IMG/VR virus record: IMGVR_UViG_3300037045_000044
Coordinates: 1 to 28,151 of that record
Direction: 5' to 3' (one strand)
DNA from: a virus
Taxonomy: Duplodnaviria > Caudoviricetes
Length of the DNA stretch: 28,151 nt
Shown here: positions 14,029 to 21,896 of the stretch, one piece after another
Layout: every line of letters starts with the position of its first letter
Position numbering within the stretch: position 1 is the first letter of the stretch
The notes under the pieces: model-generated
The model's input: the letters and a program-made list of their open reading frames with translations, nothing else
Databases searched by the model: none
What the model was told of the DNA's origin: nothing
Program-made: the position numbers and the translations under genes

Positions 14029-16422
14029 ATGGGATTTGACACGGACAACGACCTGGAGTCTCAATACGAAGAGATTGATCCGGATGACCTTGAGGCCTGG
14101 GGCGATGAGTCCACCGTCAGCGACGAAGACTTCGGAGACAACGAAGACGAGCTGAGCCAGGAGTTCGTCGACAAGCTCATCGACAAGATCATGGCCTTCG
14201 GAGAAACCTTCACAGGACGAACCCTCCACTCCTACCAACTCCCATTCGCGCGGCGCGTCATCGAGTCGATCCTCGTCAACGACGGCTCCGAGATCACCGC
14301 CCTGGCCGCACGCCAGTCGGGCAAGAGCGAGATCATCGGGTTCGTCATGTCCACCCTCATGGTCCTCCTGCCCCGTCTCGCCGCGATGTACCCCGACCTC
14401 CTCGGCAAGTTCAAGGACGGCGTCTGGATCGGCATGTTCGCCCCCGTCGAAACCATGGCCGAGACGCTCTACGGACGTACCGTCAACTTCCTGACTTCAG
14501 AACGCGCGAATGAAGTCCTCGGGGATCCTGAGATCGACGACATCACCGCGCGTACCCCCGGCGTGACCAAGGGAATGAAGCTCACCAAGTCCGGCTCGAC
14601 GCTACTCATGATGACCGCCAACCCGCGGGCGAAGATCGAGTCGAAGTCGTTCCACATCATCATCATCGACGAGGCCCAGGACTCGGATGACTTCGTGGTC
14701 TCGAAGTCGATCAGCCCGATGGGCGCCTACTACAACGCCACCATCGTCAAGACCGGCACCCCCACCACCACGAAGAACAACTTCTATCGCGCCATTCAGC
14801 TGAACAAACGTCTTCAGACCGGGCGCCGCGCCCGCCAGAACCACTTCCAGTGGGACTGGAAGGACGTCGCCAAGGTGAACCCAAACTACGAGAAGTTCAT
14901 CAAGAAGGAGATGCTCCGAATCGGTGAGGACTCCGACGAGTTCCTCTTGAGTTACTGCCCAACACCTGAGACCCGCATCCTCACTGCCGACCTCCGGCAT
15001 GTCCCTGCGGGAGAGGTCAAGGTCGGGGACAAACTCGTCGGGTTCGACGAAGAGCGGCCCGGAAAGGGGCTACATCGTAAGTTCCGTGAGGCCGTTGTGG
15101 AAGACGTGGGGAGGCTTATCCTGCCGTGCTACACGATGACGCTGTCGGACGACACCGTAGTGACCTGCTCCGGCGACCACCAGTGGTTGGTGTCCACAGC
15201 TGGGAGACGCACCGTCTGGAAGCGCACGGCTGATCTTGTGGCCACAGACCGCATCTTCAAGGCGACAGACGTCTGGGAGACCGCAGACAGCTACGACGCG
15301 GGGTATCTCGCGGCGGCGTTCGATGGGGAAGGCTCCTTGGCCCGGCGTACCGACGGTCAGGTCGTCGGCCTGACGATGGCGCAGAAGCCGAATGCGATGC
15401 TGGCTCACGTCGAGGGGGTACTCACGCGTGAGGGGGTGCAGTACGGGAAGTACGACAACAACGTCGAGCGCAGCGGTGTCCATCACGTCAGCGTCAAGGG
15501 CGGAGGCGCAGCCATCGCCCAGTTCCTCGGGAAGTACCGCCCGAAGCGCCTTCTGGACAAGTTCCGCGTGGACGATATGGGGTCCATCGGTAGGCACGAC
15601 CACAAGGCCACTGACTTCCGCCACCCGTCAGTCGTCTCAGTGGAGTTCGTCGGGGACCGAGAGGTGGTGGCCATCAAGACTTCGACCAAGACGTACGTGG
15701 CGGAAGGGCTCGCGTCCCACAACTGCTGCCGGTGGCTGCTTGAGCGAGGCATGTTCGTCTCCTCCTCAGTGCTCGACCACACCAGCCCCAGCACCTTGGG
15801 CGATCTCACAATGGAGACGGTGAAGATCTGGCAGTCGAGCCCCTGTGTCGTGGGGATTGACCCGGCGCGAAAGTCCGACTCCACGGTGGTCACCGTGATG
15901 TGGGTGGACTGGGACCGGCCAGACGAGTTCGGGTACTACGAGCACCGGATCCTCAACTGGCTGGAGATCCAGGGCGACGACTGGGAGGAGCAGTACTACC
16001 AGATCGTCAACTTCCTCTCGAACTACGACGTCCTGGCAGTGGCCGTCGACGCCAACGGCGTCGGTGACGCGGTCGCTCAGCGTCTCAAGCTGCTACTCCC
16101 GCGGGCTGATGTCATCCCAGTGACGTCGAGCGCGAGCGAGCAGTCGGCCCGGTACAAGCACCTCCAGGCGCTGATCCAGCGGAAGATGCTCAGCTGGCCA
16201 GCGCACGCCAAGTCGAGGCGCCTGCGCACCTACCGCCGCTTCGTCCAGCAGATGGGCGACGCCGAGGTGACGTTCAAGGGCCCGAACTTCTCCGTCGAGG
16301 CCCCCGACGAGGCCCACGCCCACGACGACTACGTCGACAGCCTGTCCCTCGCGGCCTCTCTGACGAAGGATCTCATCGCCCCTCAGGTTGAAACCAGCAA
16401 CAACTTCTTCTACGCACGCTGA
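14029..16422 (+). CDS. terL: terminase large subunit, intein-containing
   Basis: Walker A AARQSGKS, Walker B IIIIDEAQ, nuclease GIDPA and HDDYVDS; no SD (possibly leaderless). Confidence 0.95.
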   Translation: MGFDTDNDLESQYEEIDPDDLEAWGDESTVSDEDFGDNEDELSQEFVDKLIDKIMAFGETFTGRTLHSYQLPFARRVIESILVNDGSEITALAARQSGKSEIIGFVMSTLMVLLPRLAAMYPDLLGKFKDGVWIGMFAPVETMAETLYGRTVNFLTSERANEVLGDPEIDDITARTPGVTKGMKLTKSGSTLLMMTANPRAKIESKSFHIIIIDEAQDSDDFVVSKSISPMGAYYNATIVKTGTPTTTKNNFYRAIQLNKRLQTGRRARQNHFQWDWKDVAKVNPNYEKFIKKEMLRIGEDSDEFLLSYCPTPETRILTADLRHVPAGEVKVGDKLVGFDEERPGKGLHRKFREAVVEDVGRLILPCYTMTLSDDTVVTCSGDHQWLVSTAGRRTVWKRTADLVATDRIFKATDVWETADSYDAGYLAAAFDGEGSLARRTDGQVVGLTMAQKPNAMLAHVEGVLTREGVQYGKYDNNVERSGVHHVSVKGGGAAIAQFLGKYRPKRLLDKFRVDDMGSIGRHDHKATDFRHPSVVSVEFVGDREVVAIKTSTKTYVAEGLASHNCCRWLLERGMFVSSSVLDHTSPSTLGDLTMETVKIWQSSPCVVGIDPARKSDSTVVTVMWVDWDRPDEFGYYEHRILNWLEIQGDDWEEQYYQIVNFLSNYDVLAVAVDANGVGDAVAQRLKLLLPRADVIPVTSSASEQSARYKHLQALIQRKMLSWPAHAKSRRLRTYRRFVQQMGDAEVTFKGPNFSVEAPDEAHAHDDYVDSLSLAASLTKDLIAPQVETSNNFFYAR
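14956..15723 (+). mobile_element. intein (256 aa) with LAGLIDADG-type motif in TerL
   Basis: Starts CPTPETRILT (block A), has CSGDHQW (block B) and YLAAAFDGEGSL (block C), ends YVAEGLASHN followed by Cys +1. Confidence 0.93.
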
Positions 16423-16706: not shown

Positions 16707-17120
16707 ATGGCAGACATGACTTCGCCCATCGCGCCCGCTCTTCAGTACCCGGAGAAGGTCGGCACGGTCTACGAGCGGAAGATGGCACCCTCGCTGCCGA
16801 TGAACCGCGGACCCCTCCGCTTCCAGGAGGGCGTGGCGACCGACACCGACATCCCGCAGGACTTCCAGACCGGCGTGTTCCAGGGCGTGATGACCCCTCC
16901 CGGTCGCCCGAACCACAACGCCAACGTCTACGAGAAGTGGCCCGAGGAGACCATGAAGCAGCGCGCCCACGTCGGCTCCGCTGCCTGGGTCGAGTCGCCG
17001 CAGTACCTCGGGGAGTTCGCGCACGGATCGTTCTCGGACTACGCCGAGGTGCGCTACGAGCAGGTCGGCCGCGATGGCGGCAACCAGCGCCGGATGAACC
17101 CGGCCTCGGTCCACGACTGA
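16707..17120 (+). CDS. conserved hypothetical protein of Bxz1/E3-like head module
   Basis: SD GAAGGAG; RGPLRFQEGVATDTDIP and ETMKQRAHVGSAAWVE recalled from this phage group. Confidence 0.85.
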   Translation: MADMTSPIAPALQYPEKVGTVYERKMAPSLPMNRGPLRFQEGVATDTDIPQDFQTGVFQGVMTPPGRPNHNANVYEKWPEETMKQRAHVGSAAWVESPQYLGEFAHGSFSDYAEVRYEQVGRDGGNQRRMNPASVHD

Positions 17121-17216: not shown

Positions 17217-17444
17217 GTGGCACAGATTCCGGCTAACACCAAGATGTGGGACATGCTCATCGCCCAGGCGAAGACCAAGTTCGACAAGTGGCCGTCACCC
17301 ACCGCCTCCAACTGGGTTCACAGCAAGTACGTGCAGCTCGGGGGCAAGTTCGTCGAGTCGACCAAAGAGCTGAACCGCAAAGAGCGCAAGGACCGCGCTG
17401 AATCTGAGAAGAAGAACGAAGAGCGTCGGAAGGCTGGCCTGTGA
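17217..17444 (+). CDS. small basic conserved hypothetical protein (75 aa)
   Basis: SD GAAAGG; AK.KF..WPS..AS.WV...Y...GG.F motif. Confidence 0.8.
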   Translation: MAQIPANTKMWDMLIAQAKTKFDKWPSPTASNWVHSKYVQLGGKFVESTKELNRKERKDRAESEKKNEERRKAGL

Positions 17445-17455
17445 CCCACAGGCCG

Positions 17456-17477
17456 TGTCACCGGGGCACCGTAGACT
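17456..17477 (+). promoter_or_regulatory. RecA-NDp/PafBC-like promoter for a leaderless HNH mRNA
   Basis: TGTCAC-N10-TAGACT, then 7 nt and ATG at 17485. Confidence 0.5.
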
Positions 17478-17484
17478 AAGTGTC

Positions 17485-18177
17485 ATGCGCGCAACTCCCT
17501 TCGACGGACCCTTGTTCACCGCCTGCACCTACCAGAAGCCTCCCGGTCGAGGTCACCGCCTCCCCAAGCTGATCGCCCCCGGAACCAAGGTCGCGCGGCT
17601 CACCGCCACCGACACCTTCGGATTCAAGACGCGGCGCGACGGGCGTCAGCGGTGCTTCCAGCTGTTCCTTTGCGACTGCGGCGGCGAGCTTCTCTGCATC
17701 CCTGGGACAGTAGTCACCGGCAACACCTCCTCGTGTGGCTGCGCGCACACGGAGACAGCCAAGGCCTTGATGACCACGCACGGGGCCACGGTTGACCGCT
17801 CCAGCGAGGAGTACCGCCGCTACCGCGCGAATCTCACGCACGTGCGTCGAGCGAAGATTATTGAGACCGCGTTTGAGCAGATTTCCCCTGAACAGTACGC
17901 GAAGCTTCTTGAAGAGCATTCACACAAATGCTGGATCTGTGAACAACCTGCCCGCTTGGTCTGGGACCACGTGCAGCCACTAGCGAAAGGCGGAACCCAC
18001 ACAGTGGACAACCTCCGCCCCGCTTGTGGCCCGTGCAACTCCCGCAAGTCAGACCTCTGGCCGTTCACTGACGCTCGTAGAGAGCAGATTGCTGAAGAGG
18101 TGCGGGCACTACGCGCCTCCCTGAGTGCTATCTCAGACACGGACGGGTTGGAGGTGAGCGCGCATGTCATCCATTGA
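17485..18177 (+). CDS. free-standing HNH homing endonuclease
   Basis: CWIC...WDHVQPLAKGGTHTVDNLRPACGPCNSRK HNH; N-terminal CDCG...GNTSSCGC module; more A/T-ending codons than neighbours; overlaps the portal start by 14 nt. Confidence 0.9.
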   Translation: MRATPFDGPLFTACTYQKPPGRGHRLPKLIAPGTKVARLTATDTFGFKTRRDGRQRCFQLFLCDCGGELLCIPGTVVTGNTSSCGCAHTETAKALMTTHGATVDRSSEEYRRYRANLTHVRRAKIIETAFEQISPEQYAKLLEEHSHKCWICEQPARLVWDHVQPLAKGGTHTVDNLRPACGPCNSRKSDLWPFTDARREQIAEEVRALRASLSAISDTDGLEVSAHVIH

Positions 18178-19853
18178 TTTCTCTCCCGCATCGTACCGAG
18201 CTAGCTCCTCCGATCTGACAGTCTCCATCAGCCCCCTCGGCCTCGTCGAGTTGGCCGATGAGGAGTTTGAAGTTCATGGCCCGCGCCTAAATCGCTACAG
18301 TCTCAACTGGGCGATGTACTTACCTGGGTCATCATTATTCCTACCGGCGACCCACTGGTGAATCGCAGCTCGCGTTCAACTACGTGCGCGCATTCACCGA
18401 CTACCTGATCAACTTCACGTTCGGTCAGGGCGTCCAATTCGCCTCACCCAAGCCCACTGAGGCCATCATCCCTGACCTTCTCAAGAGGGTCTGGGAGGTG
18501 GACAACAACAAGGCCAATCTCATGTGGGAGATCGGGCAGCAAGGTGCCGTTTCAGGTGACTGCTTCATCAAGGTCGCCTACGAAGAGGCGCACGAGGACA
18601 CCATCGGCCGATTCCACCCTGGCCGTGTCCGGGTTCTTCCGCTGAACTCCAGCTTCTGCTTCCCCGAGTTCCACCCCCATGACCGCGACCGGCTGATTCG
18701 ATTCAAGCTGAAGTACCGCTTCTGGGGCACCTCTCTTGAGGGAACCCGCCAGGTGTTCACCTACACCGAGATCATCACGGATGACCGGATCGAGGAGTAC
18801 GTCAACGACGAACTGATCGACTCGCGCGAGAACCCGATGGGCACCATCCCAGTCGTCCACATCCCCAACACGCGGATCGCTGGGTCCCCCTGGGGCCTCT
18901 CCGACTGCAACGACATCCTGTCGCTCAACAGGCACTACAACGAAGTGTCGACCGACATCGCGGACATCATCAACTACCACTCCGCACCGGTCACCATCGT
19001 CTCCGGCGCCAAGGCCTCCACCCTGGAGAAGGGCGCCAACAAGGTCTGGGGCATCCCCAACAAGGACGCCAAGGTCTACAACCTCGAAGGCGGCGGCACC
19101 GGCCTGGCCGGGGCGATGACGTACATCGAGGGCATCAAGCGCTCCATGCACGAGATGGTCGGCGTCCCCGAAAGCGCACTGGGCCAGATGCAGCCGATCT
19201 CGAACACCTCGGGTGTCGCGCTGTCGATCATGTACCAGCCGCTGATGAACAAGTGGCGCCAGAAGACGGCTCTCTACGCCAAGGGCCTTGAGCGCGTCAA
19301 CGAGTTGATCATCCTCCTCATCGCCATCAAAGAGCCTGAGATGCTCGTGTGGCAGGAGACCGACCCGGTTGCACTGCGCCCCGGGCAGTTCCCCGCGCTC
19401 GACCCGAATGACCCGCAGACCTACCGCTCGGAGGCGCACTTCCCGCCGCCGCTGCCGTTCGACAAGCTGGTCGTCCTCAACGAGATCCAGGCCAAGATGG
19501 CCATGGGCCTTGAGTCGAAGGAAGGCGCACTCCGCGCACTGGGCGAAGAGTTCCCCGACGAGAAGATGACCGAGATCCGCGAGGAGCTGGTCGAAGAGGC
19601 CAAGGCCGACGGCGCTCTCGAACTCATCAAGTCTCAGATTCAGCTTGCCACCATGTTCATGACCGGCATGGATCCGATGGGCGGAGAAATGGGCGGCGGC
19701 GCTGGTGGCGAAGAGGGAATGGCCCCGGCTGGTCCGGTAATCCCGCCCGAGGGAATGCAGGCCATCATGCAGCTTCAAGCAGAGCTGGTCACCCGCGCCT
19801 ACGGCACCAAGGCCGCTCAGTCGAGTTTCGCGCTCCCTCAGAAGGACGAGTAA
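18164..19853 (+). CDS. portal protein encoded in two frames (18164-18319 joined to 18324-19853 by skipping 4 nt; about 561 aa)
   Basis: ORF1 MSSIDFSP...RYSLNWAMY (SD GGAGGTG) continues in the +1 frame as LGHHYSYRRPTGESQLAFNYVRAFTDY; the rest has SPP1-like portal motifs (IPVVHIPN, WGLSD, SNTSGVAL). Confidence 0.9.
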
Positions 19854-20006: not shown

Positions 20007-20828
20007 ATGTCGCAACTCGATCAGAGCGCATTCAACTCCGAGGTCACCGCAGCCGGGATCACCCCGGGCACGATCATCTCAGACACGAGCGCAGGGATCC
20101 TGGTGGGAACCGACGCCCCGACGCCGAAGTTCACCACGTCGACCACGACCACGGCCGACACCGGCAAGATCGCCGGGAAGTACACCGAGGAGGACCTCGC
20201 CAGGGTCCGTCAGCAGGAGAAGGACAAGCTGTACCCCCAGTTGGAGACGCTCAAGGAGATGGTCTCTCGTCTGGAGAAGGAGCGCGAGGAGCGGGAAGCC
20301 GCTGAGCAGGCCGCTATTCGCGCAGCCGAGGAGAGCGTTCGACTGAAGACCGAATCCGAGACCGACCTCCGAACCCTTCTCTCGCAGAAGGATCAGGAGT
20401 GGCAGGCGCGAATCGATGCCGAGCGGGCCGAGCGTGAGAGCGCCTTCGCCCTGCTGGACCGAGAGCGCGAGTACCAGGCCTTGGAGGAGTTCCGCCACAA
20501 CCAGATCGTCGCAGCCCAGGATGACATCCTGCCGGAACTGCTGGACCTGGTGAAGGGCAATTCCCAGGAGGAGATCGCCACCTCCATCAACTCTCTCAAG
20601 GAGCGCTCGGCGCGGATCCTTGAGTCAGCGCAGACTGCGATGCAGTCGGCCCGCCGAGACATGGTGGGATCGCGGGTCACCGCCCCCTCCATCGGACCCA
20701 TGGACACACAGACGGACCACCAGCAGTTCACGCCCGATTCGATTCGGGCAATGTCGATCAACGAGTACGCCAAGAACCGCTCTCGCCTGTTGGGGACCAA
20801 CCCCAGCAACCGGGGCATGTTCGGGTAA
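20007..20828 (+). CDS. capsid scaffolding protein
   Basis: Coiled-coil-rich; YTEEDLARVRQQEKDKLYP and MS.NEYAKNR..LLG; lies between portal and capsid. Confidence 0.85.
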   Translation: MSQLDQSAFNSEVTAAGITPGTIISDTSAGILVGTDAPTPKFTTSTTTTADTGKIAGKYTEEDLARVRQQEKDKLYPQLETLKEMVSRLEKEREEREAAEQAAIRAAEESVRLKTESETDLRTLLSQKDQEWQARIDAERAERESAFALLDREREYQALEEFRHNQIVAAQDDILPELLDLVKGNSQEEIATSINSLKERSARILESAQTAMQSARRDMVGSRVTAPSIGPMDTQTDHQQFTPDSIRAMSINEYAKNRSRLLGTNPSNRGMFG

Positions 20829-20882: not shown

Positions 20883-21896
20883 ATGGCTTCTGGTATCACC
20901 GGAACCGGCGGTCTTGCCGCTTCGCCCACCGCCTACTCGGGCACCAACTCTCAGCTGACGCAGGCCATCCAGACCATCTGGTCCAAGGAGATCCTGTTCC
21001 AGGCGATGCCGATCCTGCGCTTCGAGCAGTTCGCCGTCAAGAAGACCGAACTGGGCGTTGCCCCCGGTCTCACGATCAAGTTCATGCGGTACGACAACCT
21101 GGAGGTGCCCGCCGGGCCCCTCACCGAGGGTGTCCGCATGGAGACCGCGGCCCTGACCTCGTCTCAGTTCGACATCACCGTCGCTGAGCACGGCAAGGCC
21201 ATCGCCGTCTCCGAGCTGCTGCTCAACGCGTCCTTCGACGACGTCATGGCTTCGGCCTCGCGCCTCCTGGGCCGCAACATGGCCCTCTACCTGGACGGCC
21301 AGGCCCGCGACACGCTGCTCCTGGGCACCTCGGTGAACTTCGGCTACCTGCCCGCGACCGACTCGACCGCCAAGTACGGCGCCTACGCCGCCGGTACCAA
21401 GGCCGCGAACCGCGCCGCGCTGACCGGTGGGCACTACCTGTCCCCCCACGCGATCAAGGACACCGTCGAGACCCTGGCGACGAAGAACGTCCCGCGCCTG
21501 GGCGAGACCTACGTCTCGTTCGTCCACCCGCACCAGTCCCGCACCCTGCGCGACCACCCGGAGTTCATCGAGGTCACGAAGTACGCGGCCCCCGGCAACT
21601 TCATGCTCGGTGAGATCGGTCGTCTCTACGACACCGTGTTCATCGAGACCACGCAGGTCAAGAAGCTGGTCGCGGCCGGTGGCGACCCCGACGGCGCAGG
21701 CGCCCTGCCCGCCGGAGACGTGTACCAGGCGATCACCATCGGTGACAACGCGTTCGGCCACGCGATCTCCCTGCCCGTGGAACTCCGCGACGGCGGCATC
21801 CTCGACTTCGGTCGTGAGCACGCCCTCTCGTGGTACTCCATCTGGGGCATGGGCAAGATCACCGACAATGCGATCGTGATCACAGAGACCAACTGA
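20883..21896 (+). CDS. major capsid protein (N4-gp56-like family)
   Basis: WSKEILFQAMPILRFEQFA, FVHPHQ...L, GEIG...DFGREH..LSWY; strongly biased codons; SD AGGAG. Confidence 0.93.
   Translation: MASGITGTGGLAASPTAYSGTNSQLTQAIQTIWSKEILFQAMPILRFEQFAVKKTELGVAPGLTIKFMRYDNLEVPAGPLTEGVRMETAALTSSQFDITVAEHGKAIAVSELLLNASFDDVMASASRLLGRNMALYLDGQARDTLLLGTSVNFGYLPATDSTAKYGAYAAGTKAANRAALTGGHYLSPHAIKDTVETLATKNVPRLGETYVSFVHPHQSRTLRDHPEFIEVTKYAAPGNFMLGEIGRLYDTVFIETTQVKKLVAAGGDPDGAGALPAGDVYQAITIGDNAFGHAISLPVELRDGGILDFGREHALSWYSIWGMGKITDNAIVITETN

Follow-up and report, generated by a model that had tools for sequence, protein, structure and literature searches.

A candidate mobile cassette of an HNH endonuclease gene and a 4-nt portal insert that may be bypassed by a short ribosomal hop

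The virus record IMGVR_UViG_3300037045_000044 is a lone 28,151-bp contig of ~64% GC with a phage packaging and head module, and its whole length, which was analysed here, is called the window. Within this module, a free-standing gene for an HNH endonuclease lies directly upstream of a portal gene whose reading frame is interrupted by four extra bases (Table 1). The HNH protein matched Pfam PF01844 with 37.7 bits (cut-off 21.4, E 2.3e-9) and phrog_1035, phrog_8660 and phrog_338 with E about 1e-15, and CWIC, WDH, N176 and CGPCN of its catalytic core are invariant columns in an alignment of HNH proteins (A4). As described in a first-pass annotation of this DNA, the two genes overlap (by 14 nt, between the portal ATG at 18164 and the end of the HNH stop codon at 18177), the Shine-Dalgarno (SD) sequence of the portal gene is located inside the HNH gene, 7 nt before the ATG, and the insert lies about 140 nt downstream, exactly 143 nt past the HNH stop and after portal codon 52.

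The portal protein matched PF05133 with 74.5 bits (cut-off 25.5, E 1.1e-20) and phrog_64 with E 1.2e-35. Frame 0 is open from 18164 to 18361 and encodes 65 amino acids, and the remainder of the protein is encoded in the +1 frame. When 80 of the roughly 800-1200 related IMG/VR portal loci were fetched via the portal, 77 were found to read LNRYSLNWAMYLGHH in a single frame; of the three exceptions, L010 had its break at another place and the other two were missing the N-terminus. At the insert site, the sequence was YWAWYLGHH in two cultured phages. Where the relatives have ATG TAY YTN GGN, the window has ATG TAC T TAC CTG GGT CAT CAT, and the spacing between TAY and GGN in the alignment (A1) was 7 nt (TTACCTG) in the window compared to 3 nt in the 77 relatives, which gives four extra bases.

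The window was compared with contigs from two other metagenome studies, X2 and X3, which correspond to positions 18159-18472 and 18148-18372, respectively. Both spanned the insert with 0 gaps, and none of the 8 differences in X2 was within 18317-18326. The insert is genuine and has been retained in strains that have diverged. All 12 strain differences in the portal gene (18223, 18332, 18335, 18338, 18347, 18368, 18374, 18389, 18539, 18542, 18545 and 18551) were at third codon positions when each side was read in its expected frame, namely frame 0 for the single difference 5' of the insert and the +1 frame for 11 of 11 differences 3' of it. If read in frame 0, those in 18320-18361 would be first-position changes. 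The +1 frame contains no ATG, GTG or TTG from its last stop to 18384, where its first canonical start codon is found. Six of the 11 downstream differences precede 18384, and the stretch 18327-18383 showed synonymous variation only. Because six third-position differences of the +1 frame precede its first start codon, ribosomes must enter this frame from upstream. In more diverged carriers, where synonymous divergence is near saturation, the ratio of nonsynonymous to synonymous changes (pN/pS) was 0.00-0.41 on either side of the inserts. Both halves of the portal are under purifying selection. The HNH gene of the window is also intact and under purifying selection, with 12 of its 17 differences from the X2 and X3 strains at third codon positions and an in-frame insertion of AAC (3 nt) in X3.

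The HNH gene and the portal insert were strongly associated across IMG/VR. In the first 82 loci, an HNH gene was present in L010 only, which also had the sole broken portal (a 7-nt insert at a different place). A scan with the single HNH protein gave no relatives in IMG/VR, and alignment queries found them. The HNH alignment retrieved 39 loci, 33 of which had the HNH gene directly before a portal gene of this type. Three of these ended before the insert site, and all of the 30 evaluable HNH-bearing contigs carried one or two inserts of 4-10 nt. A scan blind to HNH covered the whole of IMG/VR for any 1-12-nt insert at the YLGHH site; 54 of its 80 matches were unrelated sequence, and the other 26 were portal contigs with an insert, 23 of which had an HNH gene or a remnant upstream. 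In 4 of the 23 (L258, L308, L279 and L291) the HNH match came without a match to the N-terminal domain, and the three insert contigs without HNH (L148, L267 and L303) shared one allele. Among 157 distinct N-terminal alleles selected for neither feature, 144 had neither, 7 had both, 2 had the insert only and 0 had the HNH gene only; the other 4 were insert-less with no HNH match, and had less than 150 nt of upstream sequence to score. The association in this unselected set gave a Fisher p of 1e-10, for carriers that are related and a cassette that can spread. In the relatives the HNH gene never occurs without an insert, and a few alleles retain the insert without HNH or with a deleted HNH. An independent distribution of HNH and insert, named in the first-pass annotation as the outcome that would speak against a cassette, was clearly refuted (30/30, 23/26 and 0/144).

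A DNA-pattern scan for portal gaps reached 7 of 64 parts of the collection, and of its 13 matches with a longer gap, 9 proved to be unrelated. A metagenome scan for the +4 form returned three contigs, of which L247 was the one new, and no close high-GC relative of the window. In L258 and L308 an internal deletion leaves a 63-aa HNH remnant, and the insert TAT TAG T TAC is retained; L279 and L291 showed the same HNH match pattern, a likeness of pattern only. The remnant in L258 and L308 parallels the defective mobA gene of phage T4.

The HNH proteins shared a common catalytic half but had two unrelated types of N-terminal domain, A and B, and the window protein is of type A. No Pfam family matched the type A N-terminal domain, which is probably the DNA-recognition part of the protein. 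All 14 distinct type A carriers had an insert at codons 52-54 (site 2), and three of them also had one at site 1. In the 8 distinct type B carriers the insert was at codons 34-36 (site 1) in every case and never at site 2. The type of N-terminal domain predicts the insert site. Inserts at both sites were present in L206, L208 and L210, with a type A HNH, and in L148, L267 and L303, without an HNH gene; these doubly inserted alleles look like resistance to both nuclease types. The portal gene of L247 had CAT TAG CAC at codon 38 and TAT TGAC CTG at codon 52, and the same contig (2588-3388, minus strand) encoded an endonuclease with a type A N-terminal domain and a different C-terminal domain, which had no match to the HNH core of the window.

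The co-inherited tract proposed in the first-pass annotation was matched by exchanges among relatives. L220 (type A) and L230 (type B) differed only between -600 and +172 and shared 98-100% identity on both sides of this interval. L223 was 97-100% identical from +177 on to L024, which lacks both insert and HNH, and only 70-79% identical before, and L010 and L083 were identical up to the insert and divergent immediately after. The limits of the cassette in these relatives ran from the start of the HNH gene to about +172/+177 of the portal gene, and the HNH gene with the first ~170 nt of the portal gene is exchanged as a block between near-identical phages. The HNH gene is sporadic at one genomic position among close relatives, as for a free-standing homing endonuclease gene (HEG). 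A tree was built with FastTree from 130 downstream residues in 144 rows, leaving out L085 and L233 (stops), loci with less than 390 nt downstream and duplicate sequences. The 24 carriers required 15 state changes on this tree, whereas 300 sets of shuffled labels required 22.2 on average and never fewer than 18. The carriers are widely scattered over the tree with some clustering, and for several of them the nearest relative was insert-less at 96-100% amino acid identity.

In the window itself, the GC content at third codon positions (GC3) alone speaks for co-conversion. The first 65 portal codons had a GC3 of 0.60 compared to 0.86 in the rest of the portal (Fisher p 4.6e-6), which agrees with the first-pass description of this segment. 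The likeness to the HNH gene that it also described held only for the 3' half (0.64 in HNH codons 119-230), whereas the 5' half (0.84 in codons 1-118) had the normal GC3 of the contig (0.82-0.91 in other genes). A sharp step at about 18370 had been anticipated, and a gradient was observed instead: GC3 in the portal rose after about 18370 to 0.8 by codons 71-100 and exceeded 0.9 past codon 190. The 3' end of the portal also showed a dip, to 0.63. The tract of lowered GC3 that includes the 3' half of the HNH gene and the start of the portal is probably the core of the co-inherited cassette.

Parsing of all carriers gave 19 distinct insert events, and L247 adds CAT TAG CAC. Four loci were scored as 'unresolved' at later lineage-specific substitutions, with their site-1 event already recorded. 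The skipped lengths were 4, 6, 7, 8, 9 and 10 nt, and all three frame offsets were represented. A stop codon (TAA, TAG or TGA) directly followed the take-off codon in 18 of the 19 events, the landing triplet just before the resume codon was identical to the take-off codon in 7 and identical or synonymous in 13, and the next conserved codon was the resume point in every event. Examples are GAA TAG T GAA, GAA T GAA, GAA TAG CCCC GAA, TTC TGA CGA TTT, TAT TAG G TAC, TAT TAG TT TAC and GGT TGA ATA GGT. The insert lengths taken together would be explained only by a hop. The window has two matched TAC codons, and its T-TAC resembles the T-AAC and T-GAC of relatives with TTA in place of TAA or TGA; the T-NAC form with TAA or TGA was found in L161, L215, L223, L208 and L247. 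TTA made up 4 of 7961 codons in a crude set of open reading frames (ORFs) of the contig, and 2 of these were in an antisense ORF. The predicted fold of 18290-18380 was mildly stable, with a minimum free energy of -27.1 kcal/mol (z -2.13). Two predicted RNA hairpins (18291-18315 and 18320-18361) flank the take-off codon. The portal gene of L085 (= L233) contained an in-frame insert, GAA TAA TAA.

The comparative evidence supports the idea put forward in the first-pass annotation of a mobile cassette analogous to mobA and gene 60 of T4. We consider it probable that the HNH gene and the 4-nt portal insert make up a single mobile cassette: insert-free alleles would be cut by the nuclease, a carrier would be shielded by its insert, and ribosomes would hop over it. 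Type A enzymes would cut or nick insert-free alleles near codons 52-54 and type B enzymes near codons 34-38, repair from a carrier genome would copy the HNH gene together with the tagged 5' end of the portal gene, and the tag would prevent re-cutting of the carrier allele. During translation of the window portal, the peptidyl-tRNA-Tyr on the first TAC would unpair while the very rare TTA fills the A site, and the tRNA-Tyr would re-pair with the second TAC, four bases on, so that decoding resumes at CTG. The product of this hop would be exactly the conserved portal (...NWAMY-LGHH...). In the relatives, a stop codon in the A site would prompt take-off, with re-pairing a few bases on. Only 12 portal copies are needed per head in tailed phages, and a modest hop efficiency could therefore be enough for the portal supply. 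In Streptomyces, tRNA-Leu(UAA) is the developmentally regulated bldA tRNA. A wider proposal, to which we give even weight for and against, is that short-range hopping is natural and has evolved repeatedly: 4-10-nt 'stop-hop' tags in the portal gene would confer resistance to two HNH homing nucleases, the doubly tagged alleles would be the trace of an arms race, TTA would serve as the pause codon here, and the portal supply would be tied to a scarce host tRNA-Leu(UAA).

Several observations weigh against the proposed cassette and hop. Among the 19 events, only that of the window lacks a stop directly after take-off and has the very rare TTA instead. Its parse is also ambiguous, since the 3'-most parse has take-off at TTA and landing at CTG, which are read by different Leu tRNAs; the TAC-to-TAC parse gives the same protein and is the sole parse with full re-pairing. 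A +1 shift at GGG-T would restore the frame as well, with one extra Pro. In 6 of the 19 events the landing was non-synonymous (CTC/TTC, TAA/GAA, TAG/GAG, AAC and GAC/TAT, and GTA/GAA); these triplets matched the take-off codon at two positions (CTC, TAA and TAG; AAC and GAC with wobble; GTA at positions 1 and 3). L085 (= L233) had a second frame break ~27 codons after GHH, with 5 nt in place of 6 and no hop-like pattern, which may reflect decay or a mistake in an old metagenome. L083 and L085 had been found via HNH, the Fisher value overstates the independence of the carriers, and the portal tree is a FastTree from only 130 amino acids. The change in GC3 was gradual, and the 5' half of the HNH gene had the GC3 of the contig.

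The cassette could be accepted and the frame of the window restored by a +1 frameshift, either by slippage at GGG-T or by out-of-frame decoding after TAC, to give one extra residue (YLPGHH or YYLGHH). A 4-nt insert needs a net shift of +1 only, both contexts (GGG T and TAC TTA) are present and the window site has no stop. However, such a shift cannot bridge the 6-, 8-, 9- and 10-nt inserts of relatives at the same sites, and the T-NAC form of the window matches the TAAC and TGAC inserts, in which frame 0 ends at once. In addition, none of the 77 relatives had an extra residue here, and TAC...TAC permits perfect re-pairing. We regard a frameshift as improbable. We hold it to be a very remote prospect that the phage is decaying or defective and its portal gene just broken, or that the four bases are an assembly error, with the HNH gene nearby by coincidence. 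A frameshift in an essential gene would normally be taken to indicate a pseudogene or an error, and the relative L085 has its extra, unexplained break; but the same insert was present in independent contigs of two other studies, variation was restricted to third positions on both sides of it, both halves were under selection, and 30 of 30 HNH carriers had inserts with the design of a stop and matched codons. Sequencing or assembly error was ruled out by the gap-free X2 and X3 contigs. An altered genetic code was also ruled out, as TAA, TAG and TGA were all present and the majority of inserts change the frame.

In HK97, the HNH protein gp74 is a packaging cofactor of the terminase. The HNH protein of the window, whose gene sits in the terminase-portal module, could have such a function, unrelated to the insert. 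This is scarcely credible: 144 distinct related alleles and the cultured phage pSt2308, a relative, lack the gene, and Alone3 has only an unrelated gene annotated as endonuclease VII in the module; a cofactor that is needed would be conserved, and instead two types of N-terminal domain, deletion remnants and an alternative C-terminal domain were found. We also weighed whether, with no recoding, the portal consists of two chains, of which one is an N-terminal peptide of 52-65 amino acids and the other a C-terminal part that arises by re-initiation. The ORFs as called are separate, and genes split by HEGs with products that reassemble are on record (gp39/gp60 and split NrdA, as presented in 10.1101/2022.08.31.505936). 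Yet the +1 frame has no ATG, GTG or TTG before 18384 and nevertheless varies only synonymously in 18327-18383, and in site-1 carriers the 14 codons from the insert to the next ATG had a pN/pS of 0.00-0.30. The breaks also lie at differing positions (codons 34-38 and 52-54), and a copy of the preceding codon in the inserts would not be needed for splitting. Two polypeptides are thus highly improbable, and the proposed cassette with a ribosomal hop is preferred.

In T4, as outlined in 10.1101/2022.08.31.505936 and in PMC5009743 (citing Bonocora et al. 2011), the HNH homing endonuclease gene mobA is combined with a 50-nt translational bypass in gene 60, and the conserved features given there for the gene 60 cassette are a stop or rare 'hungry' codon after the take-off codon and matched take-off and landing codons. 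The statements on T4 in the first-pass annotation agree with these accounts, with the nuance that the T4 nick site is ~20 bases from the insert. As far as T4 is set out in these sources, the present locus is alike in having a free-standing HNH gene directly upstream of the interrupted gene, an insert a few dozen codons in (codon 46 in T4; 34-38 or 52-54 here) and a landing codon that matches the take-off codon, which is directly followed by a stop or rare codon. Some carriers with a degenerate or lost endonuclease keep the insert in both cases, and the block is inherited together. In the T4 record mobA is a 37-aa defective remnant, and the likeness to T4 rests on architecture. In contrast to T4, 4-10 nt are skipped here rather than 50, which leaves no room for a take-off stem-loop or an internal SD, and the gene 60 type of signal (a take-off stem-loop and an internal SD-like element with a 50-nt gap) was not found in the window, whose gap is of 4 nt. 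The targeted gene encodes the portal of actinophage-like siphoviruses instead of the topoisomerase of T4-like myoviruses, the HEG is intergenic and does not split the host gene, and two types of nuclease occur, with two sites, as well as alleles tagged at both.

In programmed +1 frameshifting of the prfB type, a stop in the A site provokes the P-site tRNA to shift by one base to an overlapping codon, and the event is regulatory. The stop in the A site is shared with the portal inserts, but a one-base shift cannot give skips of 6-10 nt. The byps of Magnusiomyces mitochondria are longer than 4-10 nt, and we know of no homing endonuclease linked to them. As portrayed in PMC5009743, they resemble the portal inserts in being short non-coding insertions, many in number, that essential genes can carry because translation bypasses them, and the same article mentions 81 cases of translational 'correction' of short nucleotide blocks in a yeast mitochondrion. 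Synthetic 'stop-hops' in E. coli (Weiss et al. 1987 and later, per PMC5009743) share the matched codons around a stop, the short hop and the need for a slow A-site codon, which can be a hungry sense codon. According to that article, natural in-frame stop-hops were expected and none was known as of 2016. The synthetic cases were laboratory constructs, whereas at least 19 variants of the pattern in natural essential genes are found here. Free-standing HEGs such as mobE and the seg genes obtain immunity via sequence polymorphism and are not known to do so by a frame-interrupting insert. The portal cassette resembles them, as they are described in 10.1101/2022.08.31.505936 and PMC2988022, in its sporadic distribution, its intergenic position beside the target and the co-conversion of flanking markers.

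No published report of an HNH/portal stop-hop system was found in the literature, with subscription journals outside the coverage. The HNH/portal family would be a second natural family of the T4 gene 60 trick. The gene 60 bypass stood near-unique for decades, and its cassette was still called unique in 2022 (in the account of 10.1101/2022.08.31.505936). The natural variants of a predicted very short hop, at least 19 in number, differ in length and in take-off and pause codons within one protein context and could serve as a mutational series for the requirements of hopping. They also suggest a rule, namely that a homing nuclease can invade beside an essential, highly conserved gene provided that the insert which marks resistance is invisible to translation. 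For annotation, 'frameshifted' portal genes beside HNH genes should not be labelled pseudogenes.

Table 1. Positions in the window of the HNH gene, the interrupted portal gene and neighbouring features
Feature	Position	Strand	Basis or remark
Free-standing HNH endonuclease gene, 230 aa from ATG	17485..18177	+	alternative GTG start 17455; TGA stop 18175-18177
Type A N-terminal domain (RLTAT...GNTSSCGC)	17485..17814	+	alignment A4
HNH catalytic core (CWIC...WDH...N...CGPCN)	17929..18054	+	Pfam stretch aa 159-200 of 240-aa reading
Portal Shine-Dalgarno GGAGGTG	18150..18156	+	read from sequence
Portal gene, two frames	18164-19853	+	
Portal codons 1-52, proposed take-off TAC 18317-18319	18164..18319	+	matches conserved N-terminus of 77 relatives
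4 extra bases (T + TAC): TTA 18320-18322 proposed slow A-site codon, TAC 18321-18323 proposed landing	18320..18323	+	
Frame-0 tail LPGSSLFLPATHW then stop, predicted product without a hop	18320..18361	+	
Portal codons 53-end, +1 frame, resumes CTG GGT CAT CAT (LGHH)	18324..19853	+	PF05133, phrog_64
Lowered-GC3 tract	17845..18400	+	0.53-0.73 compared to 0.82-0.91 in neighbouring genes
Large terminase	14029-16422		797 aa
Two small conserved genes	16707-17120 and 17217-17444		
Conserved 75-aa gene, left flank of the putative cassette	17217..17444	+	tblastn homologues in 76/82 loci
273-aa gene	20007-20828		position of scaffold gene annotated in pSt2308 and Alone3; no family match
Major capsid protein	20883-21896		

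In relatives that lack HNH, the homologue of the 75-aa gene sits ~90-110 nt 5' of the portal start. The closest cultured relatives were Streptomyces phages (pSt2308, Alone3 and BRock), which are insert-free and have ~65% nucleotide identity in the portal gene; among cultured phages, nothing nearer than these distant phages was matched. In Alone3 (L002), a gene annotated as endonuclease VII (1956-2471) is located between the terminase and an uninterrupted portal gene, and tblastn gave no match between this gene and the HNH gene of the window. The large terminase of the window was longer than the 525-aa terminases of Alone3 and pSt2308, with ~270 extra amino acids at about 14926-15738. This insertion had sub-threshold Pfam matches to Intein_splicing (E 0.0012) and LAGLIDADG_3 (E 0.0028) and is probably an intein with its own homing endonuclease, which would be a second selfish element in the packaging module.

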